Source of the DNA: an uncultured Bacilli bacterium
Lineage (GTDB): Bacteria > Bacillota_I > Bacilli_A > RF39 > UBA660
Direction of reading: 5' to 3'
NCBI GenBank assembly: GCA_947589195.1
Contig: CANPZX010000034.1
Coordinates: forward strand, 1-13,494
Length of the DNA: 13,494 nucleotides
How positions within the stretch are numbered: position 1 is the first letter of the stretch; each line of letters begins with the position of its first letter. The notes beneath the pieces were generated by a model. It was not told the DNA's origin, made no database searches, and saw only the letters and a list, made by a program, of their open reading frames with translations. A program made the position numbers and the translations under genes. Of this stretch, positions 4,969-11,043 are shown piece after piece.

Positions 4969-5418
4969 TTAATTATTCTCCTTTTTATTTTTGATTTCTA
5001 ATAAAATATCTTCAAGATTTACTGGGGTGCAATTATGTGCATCCATATTAACATTGTAAGTATGATAAATATCACTCCATTTATTTTTAGAATGGGTATG
5101 TCCATGAATTGAATAAATTGGTTTATCGTCTCCTGAATTTGCAACTAATTGAGGATAATGAGATAATATAAAAACTTTCTTACCAGGAACTTTAATACGA
5201 TAGCCAAATTGTATCTCAGCTATGTTCCAACAATTTTTATACATAGCAATGCGAGCATCGCTATCATGGTTTCCTATTGCAATATATATATTTCCTTTAA
5301 GTTGTTTTAATAGTTTTAATCCATTTTCATTATTTCCAAGCATTACGTCTCCAAGATGATATACTATATCATCGGATTTAACAACTTTATTCCAATTTTC
5401 AATGATAGCTTCATTCAT
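4969..5418 (-). CDS. Calcineurin-like metallophosphoesterase. This is the part downstream of the in-frame TAG and lacks metal-binding motif I.
   Basis: Motifs GDVMLG (II), GNHDSD (III) and GHTHS (V) are present. The missing motif I (IWLTSDTHF) is encoded in-frame just upstream at 5523..5479 and is separated by a TAG at 5478..5476. The complete unit would be 5523..4969. Confidence 0.55.
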   Translation of the reverse strand: MNEAIIENWNKVVKSDDIVYHLGDVMLGNNENGLKLLKQLKGNIYIAIGNHDSDARIAMYKNCWNIAEIQFGYRIKVPGKKVFILSHYPQLVANSGDDKPIYSIHGHTHSKNKWSDIYHTYNVNMDAHNCTPVNLEDILLEIKNKKENN

Positions 5419-5475
5419 TTCATGGATATTAGCAAAACCGCGGGCTTTCCAAATAAAATCTTTATCATGGCAAAA

Positions 5476-5532
5476 CTAGAAATGGGTATCACTAGTTAGC
5501 CAAATATTCGTTCCGATACCCATATTGTTCAT
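5476..5532 (-). other. Detached N-terminal segment of the phosphoesterase (M-N-N-MGIGTNIWLTSDTHF-TAG). It is in frame with 4969..5418 and starts in overlap with the HEG stop (TGATG).
   Basis: AAGGAG lies upstream. It encodes the DxH metal-binding motif I. The TAG at 5478..5476 terminates it, and the reading frame then continues as FCHDKDFIWKARGFANIHEMNEAII, which looks like a conserved phosphoesterase. Confidence 0.5.
5486..5507. repeat. Direct repeat copy B (gtatcactagttagccaaatat). It matches 6545..6566 at 21 of 22 positions.
   Basis: The 17-mer gtatcactagttagcca is identical on both sides of the homing endonuclease gene. Both copies encode IWLTSD on the minus strand. Confidence 0.8.
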
Positions 5533-6467
5533 CACTCCTTTCGTGGAGTAGTTAAAGCTGTAACTACATCCATTCCTTTTTTAATACGTTGATAGTAACT
5601 ATTTGTTGATATATTATATATTTTACACCAGTCTTTTATTGTATGCCGCTCTCCATTAATTAATGGATTTGTATGATTGTATTCTTTTATTTTTTGTTCT
5701 ATATCAACTTCATTAGGAATAATATTATTATTTTTATCTAAAGCTCTAAAAATATATCCTTTAACTATAGAATATCTTTGATTCCCATTAATACAAGAAG
5801 AAAGATTTTTTCTATTAGCTGGTAATAATTCAGCAGCTTCTGAAATTGAATTAAAAATAATAAAATCATTAGGGTTATCTATTTTAATTCCTATAATTTT
5901 TTTACGACCTTTTATTGGTTTTATTTCTTGATGAATTACTTGATTGTTTTCATCAATATCTCTAAAAATCATACCATTAAAAGAAGATTGCTCTCCTTTA
6001 CATACTAATCTAATTTTTGAAGCATTATTGCTATATCCATTTAAGCGAGATGCTTCTTGATATGATTTATAAATTTCAATAATTTCTTCGTTATAATTTA
6101 CCTTAGCACATTTTTGGCTACGTTTTTGTATAGATTTTTCTCGTAAAATAGGATCAGATAAAGCGTTATGAGTACAATCAGTTTGATTATATCCATAAAG
6201 GTTATTATTACTTTTATATTTTATAATCATACTATGTTCATATTCTTCACACTCATATCTATTATTGAAACCTTCTTTAAGTATTTCAAATTTAAAATTT
6301 TGTTCTCCATATTTTCTAAATGCTTGTTGCAATGGATAGTTATAAGAATTACTATTGGGCCTACGCGAATTATCTTTATGTTCATTCCACCTTTGATAAA
6401 CATTATTAGAAGATCCAATATAACATTTATTATTTACTAAGTTTGTAATTTTATATACAGTGAACAT
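5532..6467 (-). mobile_element. Free-standing GIY-YIG homing endonuclease gene (I-TevI/Seg-like), 311 aa
   Basis: MFTVYKITN...KCYIGSS...YQRWNEH...EEYEH...YGYN are the GIY, YIG, R, E and N motifs. The C-terminus is a basic DNA-binding region with an HTH-like end (WCKIYNISTNSYYQRIKKG). AAAGGAGG lies 6 nt before the ATG at 6467. The annotated 5' extension to 6551 starts with GTG and has no RBS. Confidence 0.85.
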
Positions 6468-6540
6468 AAATACCTCCTTTATTTTATATTGTATATAAAA
6501 ATTACATGTAATCTTTTTATTACTTCTGACCAACATTTTT

Positions 6541-6573
6541 TTATGTATCACTAGTTAGCCATATATTTGACAT
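6541..6573 (-). other. 10-codon remnant ORF (MSNIWLTSDT-TAA). It is the original 5' end of the phosphoesterase gene, cut off by the HEG insertion.
   Basis: AAGGAG is 8 nt upstream. It duplicates the IWLTSDT segment found at 5510..5488. It lies in the direct repeat copy A at 6545..6566. Confidence 0.5.
6545..6566. repeat. Direct repeat copy A (gtatcactagttagccatatat)
   Basis: See copy B above; the repeats flank the HEG. Confidence 0.8.
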
Positions 6574-6575
6574 AT

Positions 6576-6746
6576 TTAATTCTCCTTAGTGTTTATTGTT
6601 ATTTTAAATAATTTTATTACATTTAAAGAATCAGCAATAGTACAAATAGAACATTGTTCATTATGTTTATCCCACCAACCGCAATATTGGTATTTACATA
6701 CTTCAGTCTTAGTCCTATCATTAACTAATGGACAAAACAAAAGCAT
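6576..6746 (-). CDS. Small Cys-rich protein (MLLFCPLVNDRTKTEVCKYQYCGWWDKHNEQCSICTIADSL...), likely a zinc-ribbon, 56 aa. It is not in the ORF track.
   Basis: AAAGGAG is 8 nt before the ATG at 6746. It carries C-x11-C-x4-C-x9-C-x2-C cysteines. It fills the gap between the kinase gene and the HEG, and its stop overlaps the RBS of the remnant ORF. Confidence 0.45.
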   Translation of the reverse strand: MLLFCPLVNDRTKTEVCKYQYCGWWDKHNEQCSICTIADSLNVIKLFKITINTKEN

Positions 6747-6747
6747 A

Positions 6748-9291: not shown

Positions 9292-9326
9292 TTTTATCAG
9301 CCTCTCTTTTTTCTTTATTATAAAAA

Positions 9327-9355
9327 TATTATAATATATTTTTATAATAAAATCA
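9327..9355 (-). promoter_or_regulatory. sigma-A-type promoter TTGATT-N17-TATAAT (-35 at 9355..9350, -10 at 9332..9327)
   Basis: Exact consensus, 36 nt upstream of the ATG at 9291. It probably drives the small protein and RNA ligase genes as far as the terminator at 7684..7710. Confidence 0.45.
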
Positions 9356-9357
9356 AT

Positions 9358-10242
9358 TTATAAGCGATTAACTGAATATATATTAGTCATAACATCTTCT
9401 AATTCTACAGCATAATCATTAAATAACATTATTTGTCTTGGATCTTTGAAAGATGGAATTTCAATATTTCTAGGGTATTCTCTAAATTTATGATAATGTC
9501 CAAATGCCCAAAGTTTATAATTTAATTTATACTCAATTTCACCTAAATAACGTTCCATTGTTTTATCTACCATTGATTGGTTTACCATTGAAAGGAATAA
9601 ATCTGTTGGCTCATAAATAATAGGACAAGTATGAGATAAAACTAAATCACATTGCCATTTTATAGAATTAAGCAAACTTTTTCCCGCTTCCATCTCTGAC
9701 TTAGAAAGCTGCTCTTCTGGGAACCAACTCCAGCCCATTTGTAATCTATGGTATTTGTCTACTGAATACGCTCCTGGAATTACTATAGTTCTATATTTAA
9801 GCGGGATTCCAATATCATCATCTTCAGGATTTTCTGGACAACAATATTCTATTTCATATGGAATATTATAAAATGCTACATAATCCATTGCATACTTAAT
9901 ATATGGATAATTATTTTCTACCCACACTTCCCAGTCCCAAAACGGTTCTTTATGCCATTTATTTAGATTTTCATTAGCTAAGATACTGGGTCTTTGTTCA
10001 TGGTTCCCGCGAATTGCAAAATAAACAAAAGGATATCTTCCTAATGCTTTTTTTAATTCTTCATCTCTATGATTAAAAAAATAATTTAAACCTGTATCTC
10101 CTAAAAGGATAAGTATATTTTTTTCATGTCTCGCGGCAGCCTTTGCAATTTGAGGATTCCGTTGATAAAAATCTCGAACTGGACGAAAGTTACCATGTAT
10201 ATCTGCAAGTAAATATACATGCGGGATTTCTTTTCTTGTCAT
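9358..10242 (-). CDS. Calcineurin-like (lambda-phosphatase-type) metallophosphoesterase, 294 aa
   Basis: Motifs LLADIHGN (I), LLGDTG (II), RGNHE (III) and AFGHYH (GHxH). AAGGAAG RBS is present. Confidence 0.8.
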   Translation of the reverse strand: MTRKEIPHVYLLADIHGNFRPVRDFYQRNPQIAKAAARHEKNILILLGDTGLNYFFNHRDEELKKALGRYPFVYFAIRGNHEQRPSILANENLNKWHKEPFWDWEVWVENNYPYIKYAMDYVAFYNIPYEIEYCCPENPEDDDIGIPLKYRTIVIPGAYSVDKYHRLQMGWSWFPEEQLSKSEMEAGKSLLNSIKWQCDLVLSHTCPIIYEPTDLFLSMVNQSMVDKTMERYLGEIEYKLNYKLWAFGHYHKFREYPRNIEIPSFKDPRQIMLFNDYAVELEDVMTNIYSVNRL

Positions 10243-10268
10243 ATTATATTCTTCCTTATTTTTTTAAA

Positions 10269-10442
10269 TTATTTTTCTTTATCTTCATACTTAGCTAATT
10301 TGTTTATAATTTTTTTAAACGGGCATCCTTTGCAAATATTATCTGGATATTTTCCATATTTTTGCCACATCCATTCTTCAGCTTCACAACCGCCTTTAAT
10401 TCTACAAGGATATTCATCTTTTTCTCTTGTTAAACGGGCCAT
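10269..10442 (-). CDS. Small Cys-rich protein (MARLTREKDEYPCRIKGGCEAEEW...CKGCPF), 57 aa. It is not in the ORF track.
   Basis: CAGGAGG is 6 nt before the ATG. It carries C-x5-C...C-x2-C zinc-ribbon spacing. It fills an otherwise empty gap. Confidence 0.45.
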   Translation of the reverse strand: MARLTREKDEYPCRIKGGCEAEEWMWQKYGKYPDNICKGCPFKKIINKLAKYEDKEK

Positions 10443-10600
10443 TTTATCCTCCTGTATCCGTTAATTTTAAGAAATTGAGGGGTATATGGGTAACTAACAG
10501 ACATCCATTTACTAGCTGCCCACCAATATCCATAATTATCTCTAGTAAATTTAATAATAACATCAGTACCATTGCCCCAAACTTCAAGAATATTAATCAT
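10430..10600 (-). CDS. Small hypothetical protein (MINILEVWGNGTDVIIKFTRDNYGYWWAASKW...), 56 aa. It is translationally coupled.
   Basis: Its ATG overlaps the TGA of the HD gene (ATGA). Its stop overlaps the start region of the next small ORF. The RBS is weak and distant (GAAGGA, 14 nt). Confidence 0.3.
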   Translation of the reverse strand: MINILEVWGNGTDVIIKFTRDNYGYWWAASKWMSVSYPYTPQFLKINGYRRIKWPV

Positions 10601-11043
10601 AATAAATAAGCCATTCCTTCTAAATATTTAGCTTTTAATTTATCTGTCAAAGTTTCTGTTTGAGTTAAATGATCCTTCATATCCGCAAGTTTTACATACC
10701 ATGCCGCTAAATCTATATTATTATAATATTGTTTATTTCGTAAATTAACACGATTACAATATTTTATATAAGATTCTTTAGGCTTACGAGTTAAAATTTC
10801 AATTCCTTTAGTTAATTCTTCATTAAAAATATCTTTTGGAATATTAGTGTCTTCAAATAAATCATGACATAAAGCAAGAGCTGTGCAGAAATCTCTAAAG
10901 TCATTATCATATCCCATTTTTATTTTAGTATCGTATCTAATAAAATTTGCAACTCGTTGAGCATGATTATAAGTTTGTTCATCATAGTAAGTTTTTGCAA
11001 TCAAATCAATCATTGGTAAATCATGGCTATATTCATATTTCAT
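10597..11043 (-). CDS. HD-domain metal-dependent phosphohydrolase, 148 aa
   Basis: H...HD...D signature: NHAQRVANF, ALCHDLFED and KLADMKDH. GTGAGGAAA RBS is present. Confidence 0.7.
   Translation of the reverse strand: MKYEYSHDLPMIDLIAKTYYDEQTYNHAQRVANFIRYDTKIKMGYDNDFRDFCTALALCHDLFEDTNIPKDIFNEELTKGIEILTRKPKESYIKYCNRVNLRNKQYYNNIDLAAWYVKLADMKDHLTQTETLTDKLKAKYLEGMAYLL

Follow-up and report, generated by a model that had tools for sequence, protein, structure and literature searches.

A homing endonuclease cassette splits a phosphoesterase gene in a metagenomic phage contig

The window, that is, the whole stretch of DNA analysed here, is a metagenomic contig of 13,494 nucleotides (nt) with a G+C content of ∼29%. 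It carries a small metallophosphoesterase (MPE) gene that is split by a homing endonuclease cassette and lies downstream of an RNA ligase gene and a kinase gene. All credible genes, and thus all genes and gene parts located below by window coordinates, are on the minus strand. The window belongs to a large phage whose host is a low-G+C Gram-positive bacterium; the contigs related to it span 80–240 kb, and megablast of the region against phage genomes returned no close cultured relatives. In the direction of transcription, the genes encode a protein with similarity to the major vault protein (MVP) shoulder and SPFH domains (running off the end), an HD-domain protein, two tiny open reading frames (ORFs), a 294-residue MPE (MPE294), a 92-residue ORF, the RNA ligase, a 123-residue Zn-ribbon protein, the kinase, a 56-residue Cys-rich ORF, a GIY-YIG endonuclease, the small MPE, a membrane protein, a holin, an endolysin (glucosaminidase, amidase_2 and SH3 domains), RNase H and GyrB. 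A preliminary description of this DNA had grouped the ligase, the kinase, two phosphoesterases and the HD protein into one RNA end-healing and sealing module. The ORFs that it named are all present on the minus strand at the positions it reported. Missing from it was the endonuclease, which takes up one sixth of the region and splits the small MPE gene.

The preliminary description had counted two calcineurin-type phosphoesterases. One of these, MPE294, is indeed complete and has all motifs; the other, a 149-residue ORF (4969–5418), is incomplete and starts past motif I (DxH). No Shine-Dalgarno sequence is present in the 20 nt upstream of its start codon (ATG 5418). This ORF lies inside a longer body (4969–5472) of the YfcE/aq_1665-like type, which matches Metallophos_2 and phrog_547 (E 3.3e-35), aligning to the latter from profile position 58; an orthologue matches the structure 1XM7. 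In the body, GD, GNHD, H120, GHTH and H161 are intact, and the ratio of non-synonymous to synonymous substitution rates (dN/dS) is 0.15–0.21. The remaining part of the gene, in frame with the ORF, lies farther upstream and is cut off from it by an in-frame TAG (5478–5476). This is the only in-frame TAG in coding context across 17 window genes, which themselves end in TAA (13 genes) or TGA (4 genes) and never in TAG. In this phage the small MPE gene is thus interrupted, and its reading as a simple functional gene is not supported.

Between the kinase gene and this body, the original 5′ end of the small MPE gene survives as a remnant (6541–6573), which by direct reading encodes MSNIWLTSDT followed by a stop. 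Its 11 codons are ATG TCA AAT ATA TGG CTA ACT AGT GAT ACA TAA; the cassette cuts after GAT AC, and the remnant encodes exactly the N-terminal residues of the intact orthologues in the related contigs L027 and L014. Next comes the gene for a free-standing GIY-YIG homing endonuclease of 311 residues with a NUMOD-like DNA-binding domain (5532–6467), which has its own Shine-Dalgarno sequence, matches PF01541 (E 2.8e-10), PF22083 (E 5.4e-9) and the homing endonuclease families phrog_7168/314, and is also called as a 311-residue gene in contig L002. The cassette then supplies a replacement 5′ end for the small MPE, MGIGTNIWLTSDTHF (5479–5523), which contains motif I (D12, H14) and ends at UUC (5481–5479). 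From 5523, the sequence reads ATG GGT ATC GGA ACG AAT ATT TGG CTA ACT AGT GAT ACC CAT TTC TAG TTT TGC CAT GAT. A 23-nt direct repeat (22/23), formed by the remnant and positions 5508–5486, flanks the endonuclease gene. The replacement end is separated from the body by a six-base insert (5473–5478), comprising UAG (5478–5476) and UUU (5475–5473), which is absent from all intact orthologues. The window accordingly has UUC-UAG-UUU where orthologues have one Phe codon and read xHF-[C/N/Y/S]-H or THLGH without a gap; insert-free DNA of the L027 type reads ACT AGC GAC ACT CAT CTG GGT CAT. Overall, the cassette was inserted in codon 10 of the small MPE gene and brought a replacement 5′ end together with the insert, which lies just a few bases away from the point of insertion.

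Two other explanations were rejected. A sequencing error is excluded by L002, an independent assembly that is 100% identical over 5.8 kb. A group I intron is not supported either: there were no Rfam matches at E≤1, the endonuclease gene has its own Shine-Dalgarno sequence and start codon and is flanked by the 23-nt repeat, and no splice junction could restore DTHFCH.

Interrupted alleles recur at the same site in at least 12 lineages

We compared the small MPE gene across 80 viral loci anchored on it, with 2.5-kb flanks, and across pattern scans. Interruptions at the same site were found in 36 contigs from at least 12 lineages, three of them 6-nt alleles including the window and 33 of them 7-nt alleles (window 4969–6573, minus strand; L026, L029, L044, L085, L107, L109 and loci within L113–L161). 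The second 6-nt allele, L026, comes from a different metagenome, is 74% identical and reads CAT CTT TAG CTT GGG CAT, and the third, L029, is 29% identical and reads CAT CTT TAG CTT GGC CAT. The codons flanking UAG match and co-vary in all three (UUC/UUU, CUU/CUU and CUU/CUU), and deleting the six bases restores the orthologue sequence. Pattern scans found no 6-nt allele in IMG/VR and no TAA or TGA variants of the insert.

The 7-nt insert sits one codon earlier, in the form CAT TAG C CAC/TAC TTY, and was seen in four alleles when the 80 family loci were screened. It puts the body in another frame. A relaxed scan that allowed any four bases after TAG gave 39 matches, of which 32 were true phosphoesterase genes; together with L114, known from the earlier pattern, these make 33 alleles in 10 clusters at 80% identity. 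All 33 have YAY (CAC, CAT, TAC or TAT) as the last triplet before the frame resumes, and the spacer base is C, T or G. YAY comprises the codons with which tRNA-His can re-pair after CAU: the first base forms a Watson-Crick or G-U pair, the second is A and the third is a pyrimidine. The chance that a random triplet is YAY is 1/16, and the seven non-family matches of the relaxed scan (TATG, CAAG or CTAT) have no pattern of this kind. Chance matches of the scans were discarded (L028, L030, 11 of the 21 in one scan, 7 of the 39, and all 10 of a relaxed 6-nt pattern).

If the insert is skipped, none of the three 6-nt alleles loses an invariant residue (S-D-x-H-x-x-H, GD, GNHD, H, GHxH and H). The D-x-H-x-x-H spacing is invariant in a 10-sequence family alignment and in nearly all of 76 intact loci. 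Between interrupted alleles, dN/dS was 0.18 (window versus L026, synonymous divergence (dS) 1.25) and 0.32 (L085 versus L107, dS 0.93), similar to interrupted-versus-intact pairs. The 5′ segments of the window and of L026 have diverged at many synonymous sites and so do not represent a recently shared copy. Further damage was seen in one of ∼31 complete 7-nt alleles (L147), and disruptions elsewhere in the small MPE gene affect at most 2 of the 80 loci. The seemingly short bodies of L133, L153 and L160 were rejected as cases of decay, as their apparent stops are TGA codons aligned with Trp. These three contigs have two in-frame TGA codons where the sister contig L138 has TGG, apparently read TGA as Trp and yet carry the UAG insert. 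In L029 and L044, the short N-terminal ORFs have good ribosome-binding sites upstream; the internal ATG of the window’s 149-residue ORF has none.

Several interrupted alleles have an endonuclease gene beside them. L044 encodes a 46% homologue of the window GIY-YIG protein between the kinase and the MPE, and L158 has a homologue in the same position (46–47% identity). The L044 remnant, ATG AAT AAT ATT TAT GTA ACC TCA GAT CT|T, is cut after the second base of the codon following Asp, as in the window. The L133/L138/L160 cluster, like L158, has a GIY-YIG gene directly upstream of the interrupted MPE, and LAGLIDADG-like remnants are found in L085. The L044 endonuclease ORF (∼1990) itself has an in-frame TAG where the window homologue has Lys, marking either a decaying endonuclease or another recoding site.

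The UAG micro-gap is a candidate for natural stop-hopping

The most likely reading of these alleles is probably a short programmed hop by a Phe, Leu or His peptidyl-tRNA. In the window, peptidyl-tRNA-Phe would leave UUC, skip UAG and re-pair with UUU, making a +6 ‘stop-hop’. The product would read ...SDTHFCHDK..., in the register of the orthologues, with the predicted junction IWLTSDTHFCHDK. For the 7-nt alleles, the peptidyl-tRNA would detach while UAG is in the A site and re-pair 7 nt downstream. The insert would at the same time destroy the endonuclease’s own target. Judging from the sequences, the endonuclease-associated UAG micro-gap is a strong candidate for natural stop-hopping. Whether these are the first natural stop-hops, with 6- and 7-base gaps that start at UAG and are installed by, and protect against, homing endonucleases targeting the motif-I sequence in at least 12 lineages, alternative-code carriers included, is in our judgement an evenly balanced question. 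If so, they would be an independent second counterpart of the T4 mobA/gene 60 bypass cassette, with a far shorter gap.

For many years, the case for translational bypassing was built on T4 gene 60 and few further examples. The T4 mobA element combines an endonuclease with a homologous replacement stretch and a coding gap that opens with UAG after the take-off codon; the gap guards against re-cleavage and outlasts decay of the endonuclease (bioRxiv 10.1101/2022.08.31.505936). The window cassette shares with mobA/gene 60 an endonuclease in a conserved catalytic motif, a replacement segment, UAG after the take-off codon and matched codons, and in both settings the gap often outlives an endonuclease that has degenerated or disappeared. 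The T4 gap, however, is 50 nt long (20 nt in one clade), its target is a topoisomerase and its endonuclease is the HNH protein MobA, whereas the gap considered here is 6–7 nt with no evident stem-loop, the endonuclease is of the GIY-YIG type and the target is a phosphoesterase. The upstream fragment is moreover a 10-codon remnant and not a functional half-gene. By this comparison, we regard the window cassette as an analogue of the T4 element and not as a member of it.

Two further precedents are closer in gap size. Synthetic stop-hops (Weiss et al. 1987) also place matched codons around a slow codon, so that 9 nt yield one amino acid, but they are known from constructs only. Of natural stop-hops, ‘no occurences are known’, and shorter natural counterparts were expected by reviewers of the field (PMC5009743). 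Short natural gaps have so far been proposed only for the terminase of Streptomyces phage Hau3, with a rare UUA codon as the trigger (PMC10732093). Gaps of the Hau3 type are about as short, at 10 nt and, in a prophage, 7 nt, but the trigger is a sense codon, the rationale is regulatory and there is no link to an endonuclease. Literature searches gave nothing that ties phosphoesterase genes to bypassing.

Several observations weigh against stop-hopping. The 6-nt alleles number just three, so that the window’s own type is the least well supported, and in roughly half of the 7-nt lineages the landing codon is UAY, which requires a first-position G-U pair. L029 and L120 lack a nearby endonuclease, and L040 has an endonuclease together with an intact gene. 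Hop efficiency could be very low, synthetic stop-hops being of low efficiency. Homing co-conversion may also have spread the insert recently, in which case the dN/dS values would partly reflect history before the insertion.

Some of these points also fit the best-surviving alternative, that the small MPE is a pseudogene left by collateral damage from the homing endonuclease, with 3′ ends healed by MPE294 or host enzymes and the UAG without significance for decoding. An in-frame stop after 15 codons, a downstream ATG without a ribosome-binding site, the presence of MPE294 as a second MPE, the further decay of L147 and the small number of 6-nt alleles are all as expected for a dead gene, and homing endonucleases often harm their neighbourhoods, with the L044 endonuclease gene itself degenerate. 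Decay does not explain, however, why one site is interrupted in all 36 contigs with flanking codons that are always matched or near-cognate, why the bodies keep every catalytic residue at dN/dS 0.18–0.32 and dS ∼1, why other disruptions are so rare, or why the 5′ segments of the window and L026 have diverged at synonymous sites. We consider a pseudogene unlikely.

A different form of recoding fares worse. UAG would here be read through or reassigned in the 6-nt alleles, and CAU UAG N would cause a +1 frameshift in the 7-nt alleles, at the cost of two extra residues in motif I. The base after UAG is usually C, and C after UAG is a weak termination context. None of the 17 window genes ends in TAG, some carriers use alternative codes (TGA as Trp in L133, L153 and L160), and stop codons in the A site are well-known stimulators of +1 frameshifting (PMC5009743). 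In contrast, the invariant D-x-H-x-x-H spacing leaves little room for extra residues, read-through gives no reason for matching and co-varying flanks, and frameshifting gives none for YAY. The 7-nt alleles could not be rescued by read-through, because their body lies in another frame, and after a +1 shift tRNA-His would face AUU, with which it is unable to pair. Neither a suppressor tRNA nor any other tRNA was found in the window, and the other large window genes have no in-frame TAG. This alternative therefore appears improbable. Genome-wide reassignment of TAG was rejected outright on the same grounds: large genes without in-frame TAG, a window without tRNA genes, and a change of frame in the 7-nt alleles. 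The apparent discrepancy between 709 and 837 residues for the MVP-like gene was likewise discarded as TAG evidence, being merely due to the window edge.

If stop-hopping is confirmed, minimal hops would be used in nature and would provide a simple system for studies of P-site re-pairing, and selfish elements would repeatedly have used the pairing of an endonuclease with a bypass gap as a strategy. Genes of this kind would then be mis-called as truncated by annotation pipelines, the 149-residue call being an example. The predicted signature, including co-varying codons, tRNA-His-compatible YAY and homing-endonuclease ties, is present in 36 natural sequences.

The small MPE belongs to a conserved ligase-kinase-phosphoesterase cassette

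The ligase (7722–8927, minus strand; 401 residues) is an ATP-dependent RNA ligase of the Rnl5 type, consisting of an N-terminal OB domain and an adenylyltransferase domain. It matches PF21189 (E 2.7e-22, residues 9–91), PF09414 RNA_ligase (E 7.8e-19, residues 214–390) and phrog_968, and aligns over both domains with the Naegleria enzyme NgrRnl (5COT, E 9.4e-22; residues 7–95 with NgrRnl 5–102). Motif I is K220-IDG, and QGE291, REGVV373 and SFK386 correspond in the alignment to NgrRnl motifs III, IV and V; 13 residues follow motif V, with no C-terminal OB or other C-terminal domain. The preliminary description had assigned it correctly to Rnl5, and profile searches identify it neither as a DNA ligase nor as a capping enzyme. 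The description had also noted an N-terminal extension and no OB domain, which is right for the C terminus; the extension, however, is itself an OB fold, the signature N-domain of Rnl5. Placed before the adenylyltransferase domain, such an OB domain defines the Rnl5 family (PMC5397189). As the NCBIfam TIGR02306 (RNA_lig_DRB0094) score (E 1.1e-25, 90.3 bits) is below the equivalog cutoff of 151, the protein is by sequence a divergent Rnl5 member. It shares the two-domain architecture and catalytic motifs of NgrRnl and DraRnl and aligns with NgrRnl end to end, but identity is at most ∼28% and its inter-domain linker is ∼60 residues longer. Whereas DraRnl is paired with a DEDDh-like gene, the window ligase lies in a conserved operon-like cluster with a kinase and an MPE.

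Other arrangements are seen at three further ligase loci. In L016 (2223–4565), ∼1.1 kb interrupts the Rnl5 ligase close to motif I, between residues 201 and 203, and in L012 (11207–11473) a GIY-YIG gene follows the ligase. The cultured Microbacterium phage A3Wally (L021, 35–6074) has an Rnl5-type ligase directly after an array of more than 20 tRNA genes, with HNH endonucleases interspersed and an ADP-ribosyltransferase gene after the ligase.

The kinase (6748–7251, minus strand; 167 residues; AAA_33, phrog_505) is a stand-alone P-loop protein of the 5′-OH polynucleotide kinase type. Its only Pfam match is AAA_33 (E 3.4e-16, residues 5–141), with neither a second domain nor a fused 3′-phosphatase, in line with the kinase-only Pnk that had been described. 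GIPGAGKS10–17, SRDMIR34–39 and RNENR115–119 are motifs that we take to be the P-loop, the Asp-x-x-Arg motif and the lid Arg, as in T4 and Cth Pnkp. The best matches in the PDB were PSTK (1.9e-7), Pnkp1 (8.3e-6), the CthPnkp kinase domain (6.8e-5) and T4 Pnk (0.13); adenylate, guanylate and thymidylate kinases scored far weaker than RNA-end kinases. NCBIfam matches were PSTK and bacter_Pnkp, and phrog_505 is annotated as polynucleotide kinase. The protein thus groups with polynucleotide and tRNA-end kinases (PSTK, Pnkp1, CthPnkp) and not with dNMP or adenylate kinases. Between the ligase and the kinase lies the gene for a 123-residue CxxC...CxxC Zn-ribbon protein (7262–7633, minus strand), which matches phrog_1257 (E 7.6e-10) over its N-terminal 56 residues only and has no Pfam or NCBIfam matches.

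We mapped the window proteins by tblastn onto 16 viral loci anchored on the ligase. The order ligase, (Zn ribbon), kinase, small MPE was found in seven of them (L004, L005, L009, L010, L011, L013 and L014), at 41–69% ligase identity. A Zn ribbon between the ligase and the kinase, or just upstream of the kinase, is present in L004, L005, L009, L013 and L014. L027, the closest long relative, keeps the ligase-Zn-kinase-MPE order with an intact MPE and no endonuclease. Among the 80 MPE-anchored loci, the kinase is immediately upstream of the small MPE in 31, including nearly all closer relatives, and a Zn ribbon is near it in 25; the ligase is present wherever the 2.5-kb flank is long enough (11 loci). 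Distant members of this set have no kinase, Zn-ribbon or ligase neighbours. In L129, however, the small MPE is beside a complete T4-type Pnkp (AAA_33 and HAD_PNKP), and in the distant L085 lineage it is beside an Rnl5-like ligase. The conserved core is therefore the Rnl5 ligase, the Zn ribbon, the Pnk-type kinase and the small MPE, in fixed order in dozens of divergent uncultured phage contigs. Conserved synteny bears out the linkage of ligase, kinase and one metallophosphoesterase in the five-enzyme module that had been proposed, but the HD gene is not part of it.

MPE294 (9358–10242, minus strand; PF00149, E 2.5e-10) is an accessory member of the cluster, linked in closer relatives only, as judged by gene order: its homologue adjoins the ligase in L004, L014 and L027. 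It has the motifs DIH14–16, GD48, GNHE79, SH203 and GHYH248 and belongs to an abundant, uncharacterised phage family with more than 1000 homologues. Single-sequence and profile searches of the PDB gave no informative match. A structural model (predicted local distance difference test score (pLDDT) 90) had Dbr1, PptH, LpxH and Mre11 as nearest folds, at template modelling (TM) scores of ∼0.5. Motif II reads GDTGLNY and not GDxxDRG, and the family profile matched lambda phosphatase (1G5B) only at E 0.54. The two phosphoesterases had been likened to the lambda-phosphatase type of bacterial Pnkp. This does not hold, as the small MPE is YfcE/aq_1665-like and MPE294 lacks GDxxDRG and resembles Dbr1, PptH and LpxH in fold. 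A third phosphoesterase type of ∼230–250 residues (DxHG...GDxxDRG), lambda-phosphatase-like by motif, is encoded in L044 (131–874), L120 (4703–5392) and L150 (3331–4074), upstream of the Zn ribbon and kinase, that is, in the position of the window ligase.

Some relatives also encode a member of the Thg1-like tRNA-His guanylyltransferase family (PF04446, E 4e-29). Thg1-like enzymes repair tRNA 5′ ends. The gene lies directly upstream of the MPE294 homologue in L027 (5285–6100) and L004 (5580–6383), and within ∼4 kb of it in L006 (15268–16056) and L008 (15238–16026). In the window, the corresponding position is filled by just two overlapping small ORFs (10269–10600, minus strand; one of 57 residues and Cys-rich, the other of 56 residues), which have no family match and are partly conserved in L004 and L014.

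The cassette is predicted to heal and seal RNA ends

From the enzyme families, a host ribonuclease, such as an anticodon nuclease or another defence ribotoxin, would leave 5′-OH ends and 2′,3′-cyclic or 3′-phosphate ends. By homology, the Pnk-type kinase would then provide a 5′-phosphate, the phosphoesterase would free a 3′-OH, and the Rnl5 ligase would seal the nick in a base-paired context with RNA on the 3′-OH side. Gene identities and linkage are observed here; the chemistry, the substrate and the counter-defence role we infer from them. A tRNA-directed role gains support from the Thg1-like genes near the MPE294 homologue in four relatives, and the Rnl5-type ligase beside the tRNA array of phage A3Wally is a further link to tRNA. 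Taken together, we lean towards a joint explanation in which the region is a conserved phage end-healing and sealing cassette whose small MPE gene carries the endonuclease cassette and the proposed +6 stop-hop.

The combination of activities is not without precedent. The preliminary description had called this partition of domains uncharacterised, but phage sets of separate ligases, polynucleotide kinases (PNKs) and phosphatases, the latter occasionally calcineurin-like or HD, are on record and generally taken as RNA repair (PMC7824862). The Rnl5 ligase, Zn ribbon, kinase-only Pnk and YfcE-type MPE are a variant of these described sets. T4 Pnkp with Rnl1 (and Rnl2) likewise provides a 5′-kinase of the same P-loop Pnk type, a 3′-end phosphoesterase and an ATP-dependent ligase; the window differs in its Rnl5 ligase, its kinase without a HAD phosphatase and its separate metallophosphoesterase. 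Bacterial Pnkp/Hen1 (C. thermocellum Pnkp, Capnocytophaga Pnkp1) also combines a Pnk kinase (matches to 4XRP and 4GP7), an MPE and a ligase. There, however, they form one tri-domain polypeptide with a lambda-phosphatase-like MPE, and the ligase needs Hen1, which methylates the junction, whereas the window has separate genes, other MPE subtypes, an Rnl5 ligase and no Hen1; none of its 17 ORFs had a Hen1 or methyltransferase family match. The Tsamsa-like Bacillus phages infect Gram-positive hosts, as the window phage does, and have adjacent genes for a ligase, a Pnk-type kinase (31–33% identical) and a metal-dependent phosphohydrolase. Their ligase is nevertheless of the Rnl1 type (PF09511), and their phosphoesterase is an HD domain fused to the kinase and not a separate MPE.

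A role in tRNA or RNA repair is called into question by the position of the cluster among replication genes (RNase H and GyrB, with GyrA and DNA ligase also in L027). Characterised Rnl5 enzymes seal duplex nicks and not single-stranded anticodon loops (PMC5397189), cultured phages with Rnl5-type ligases have no annotated kinase or MPE neighbours, and the small MPE family is very widespread and mostly unlinked to repair genes. In the replication or repair of the phage, the ligase, kinase and phosphoesterase might instead process DNA or junctions of RNA with DNA, healing 5′-OH/3′-phosphate nicks and sealing those with a ribonucleotide on the 3′ side. The cluster is indeed near lysis genes and RNase H/GyrB, and in L027 it adjoins GyrA, an ATP-dependent DNA ligase and a pyrimidine-dimer glycosylase. 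Rnl5 enzymes require RNA on the 3′-OH side of the nick but accept DNA as the 5′-phosphate and template strands (PMC5397189). Their physiology has been called ‘uncharted’, and the only known phenotype is in DNA repair, where loss of DraRnl slows genome reassembly after irradiation (PMC5397189). Against a DNA substrate, the closest relatives of the kinase are RNA-end kinases, Thg1-like tRNA repair genes occur in the extended cluster of four relatives, the small MPE is paired with a T4-type Pnkp in L129, and phage ligase, PNK and phosphatase sets are usually taken as RNA repair (PMC7824862). We thus consider a DNA-directed role unlikely but a genuine rival. In the healing and sealing cassette that we favour, Rnl5 ligases gain a conserved genetic context of Pnk kinase, phosphoesterases and Thg1-like enzymes, and this context suggests a role that can be tested: repair of RNA, probably of tRNA, while phages infect Gram-positive bacteria of the gut or rumen.

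The HD protein is a predicted alarmone hydrolase outside the core

The HD-domain protein (10597–11043, minus strand; 148 residues; weak PF01966 match) is of the Aph1/SAH/Mesh1 type, with the motifs H27, HD60–61, EDT64–66 and KLAD118–121. In 50 homologues, H27, D61, E64, K118 and D121 are invariant, H60, D65 and T66 are nearly invariant, and KLADMKDH is shared. A single-sequence PDB search gave no informative match. The first match of the family profile was Aph1, a (p)ppApp hydrolase of a Bacteroides caccae prophage (7SMG, E 7.6e-12); SpoT, Rel, Mesh1 and SAH came next, and a Foldseek search with the predicted structure (pLDDT 95) had 7SMG, Mesh1 and PaSAH on top (TM 0.70–0.75). By BLASTP, the best E value against gp173 of Bacillus phage Nate, an AAA_33 and HD fusion, was 0.89. 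By tblastn, the HD gene was found in none of the 16 ligase-anchored loci; where present, it adjoins the MVP-like gene. From profile and model, the protein is predicted to be an alarmone ((p)ppApp/(p)ppGpp) hydrolase outside the conserved repair core. The earlier assignment as a 2′,3′-phosphoesterase is not supported, given the profile and fold matches to (p)ppApp/ppGpp hydrolases and the lack of similarity to Pnk-HD proteins.

Aph1 is encoded by a prophage and confers immunity to (p)ppApp-synthetase toxins (PMC10083569). The HD protein resembles it in length (148 versus 149 residues), HD...EDT...KLAD motifs, fold and phage origin, but identity is ∼25% and the window has no adjacent MuF-(p)ppApp-synthetase toxin. 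A counter-defence role distinct from RNA end healing is plausible; the protein may counter alarmone- or tRNA-pyrophosphorylating toxins, and no adjacent toxin gene was seen in the window. The full earlier model, in which all five enzymes form one RNA healing and sealing system with the HD protein removing 2′,3′-phosphates, could draw on the location of all five genes within 6 kb on one strand, on the HD healing phosphoesterases in Pnk-HD fusions of Bacillus phages and on an HD gene retained near the cluster in L027, but the (p)ppApp/ppGpp hydrolase clade of the protein by profile and fold, its dissimilarity to the phage Pnk-HD domain, the missing HD gene in all 16 ligase-anchored loci and its place beside the MVP-like gene make this model very improbable.

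Other features of the window and its relatives

Two further small ORFs lie within the cluster. The 92-residue ORF (9013–9291, minus strand) has a C-terminal hydrophobic segment and no match in Pfam, PHROG or NCBIfam. The 56-residue Cys-rich ORF (6576–6746, minus strand), also without Pfam, PHROG or NCBIfam matches, is lineage-specific: by tblastn it was present in the near-identical contigs L002 and L003 only and absent from relatives.

In L010 (16247–19244), GyrB is broken at residue 420/421, with a GIY-YIG match in the break. L027 also encodes a Pol-beta-type nucleotidyltransferase (408–1445). The MVP-like gene of the window (11128–13494, minus strand) continues off its end; the genes in L001 (2141–4654) and L027 (1810–4326) encode proteins of 837–838 residues with MVP-shoulder, Vault_3 and SPFH/Band-7 matches. 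The gene is found just upstream of the HD gene in L001, L027, L004 and L010, and a protein of this kind is unusual for a phage. Between the membrane-protein and holin genes, positions 4637–4707 of the window form a perfect hairpin of A-tract, 12-bp stem and T-tract, AAAAAAAUCCUACUCUAUAAAUAGAGUAGGAUUUUUUUU, which has weak Thr_leader Rfam matches on both strands and resembles a bidirectional intrinsic terminator.

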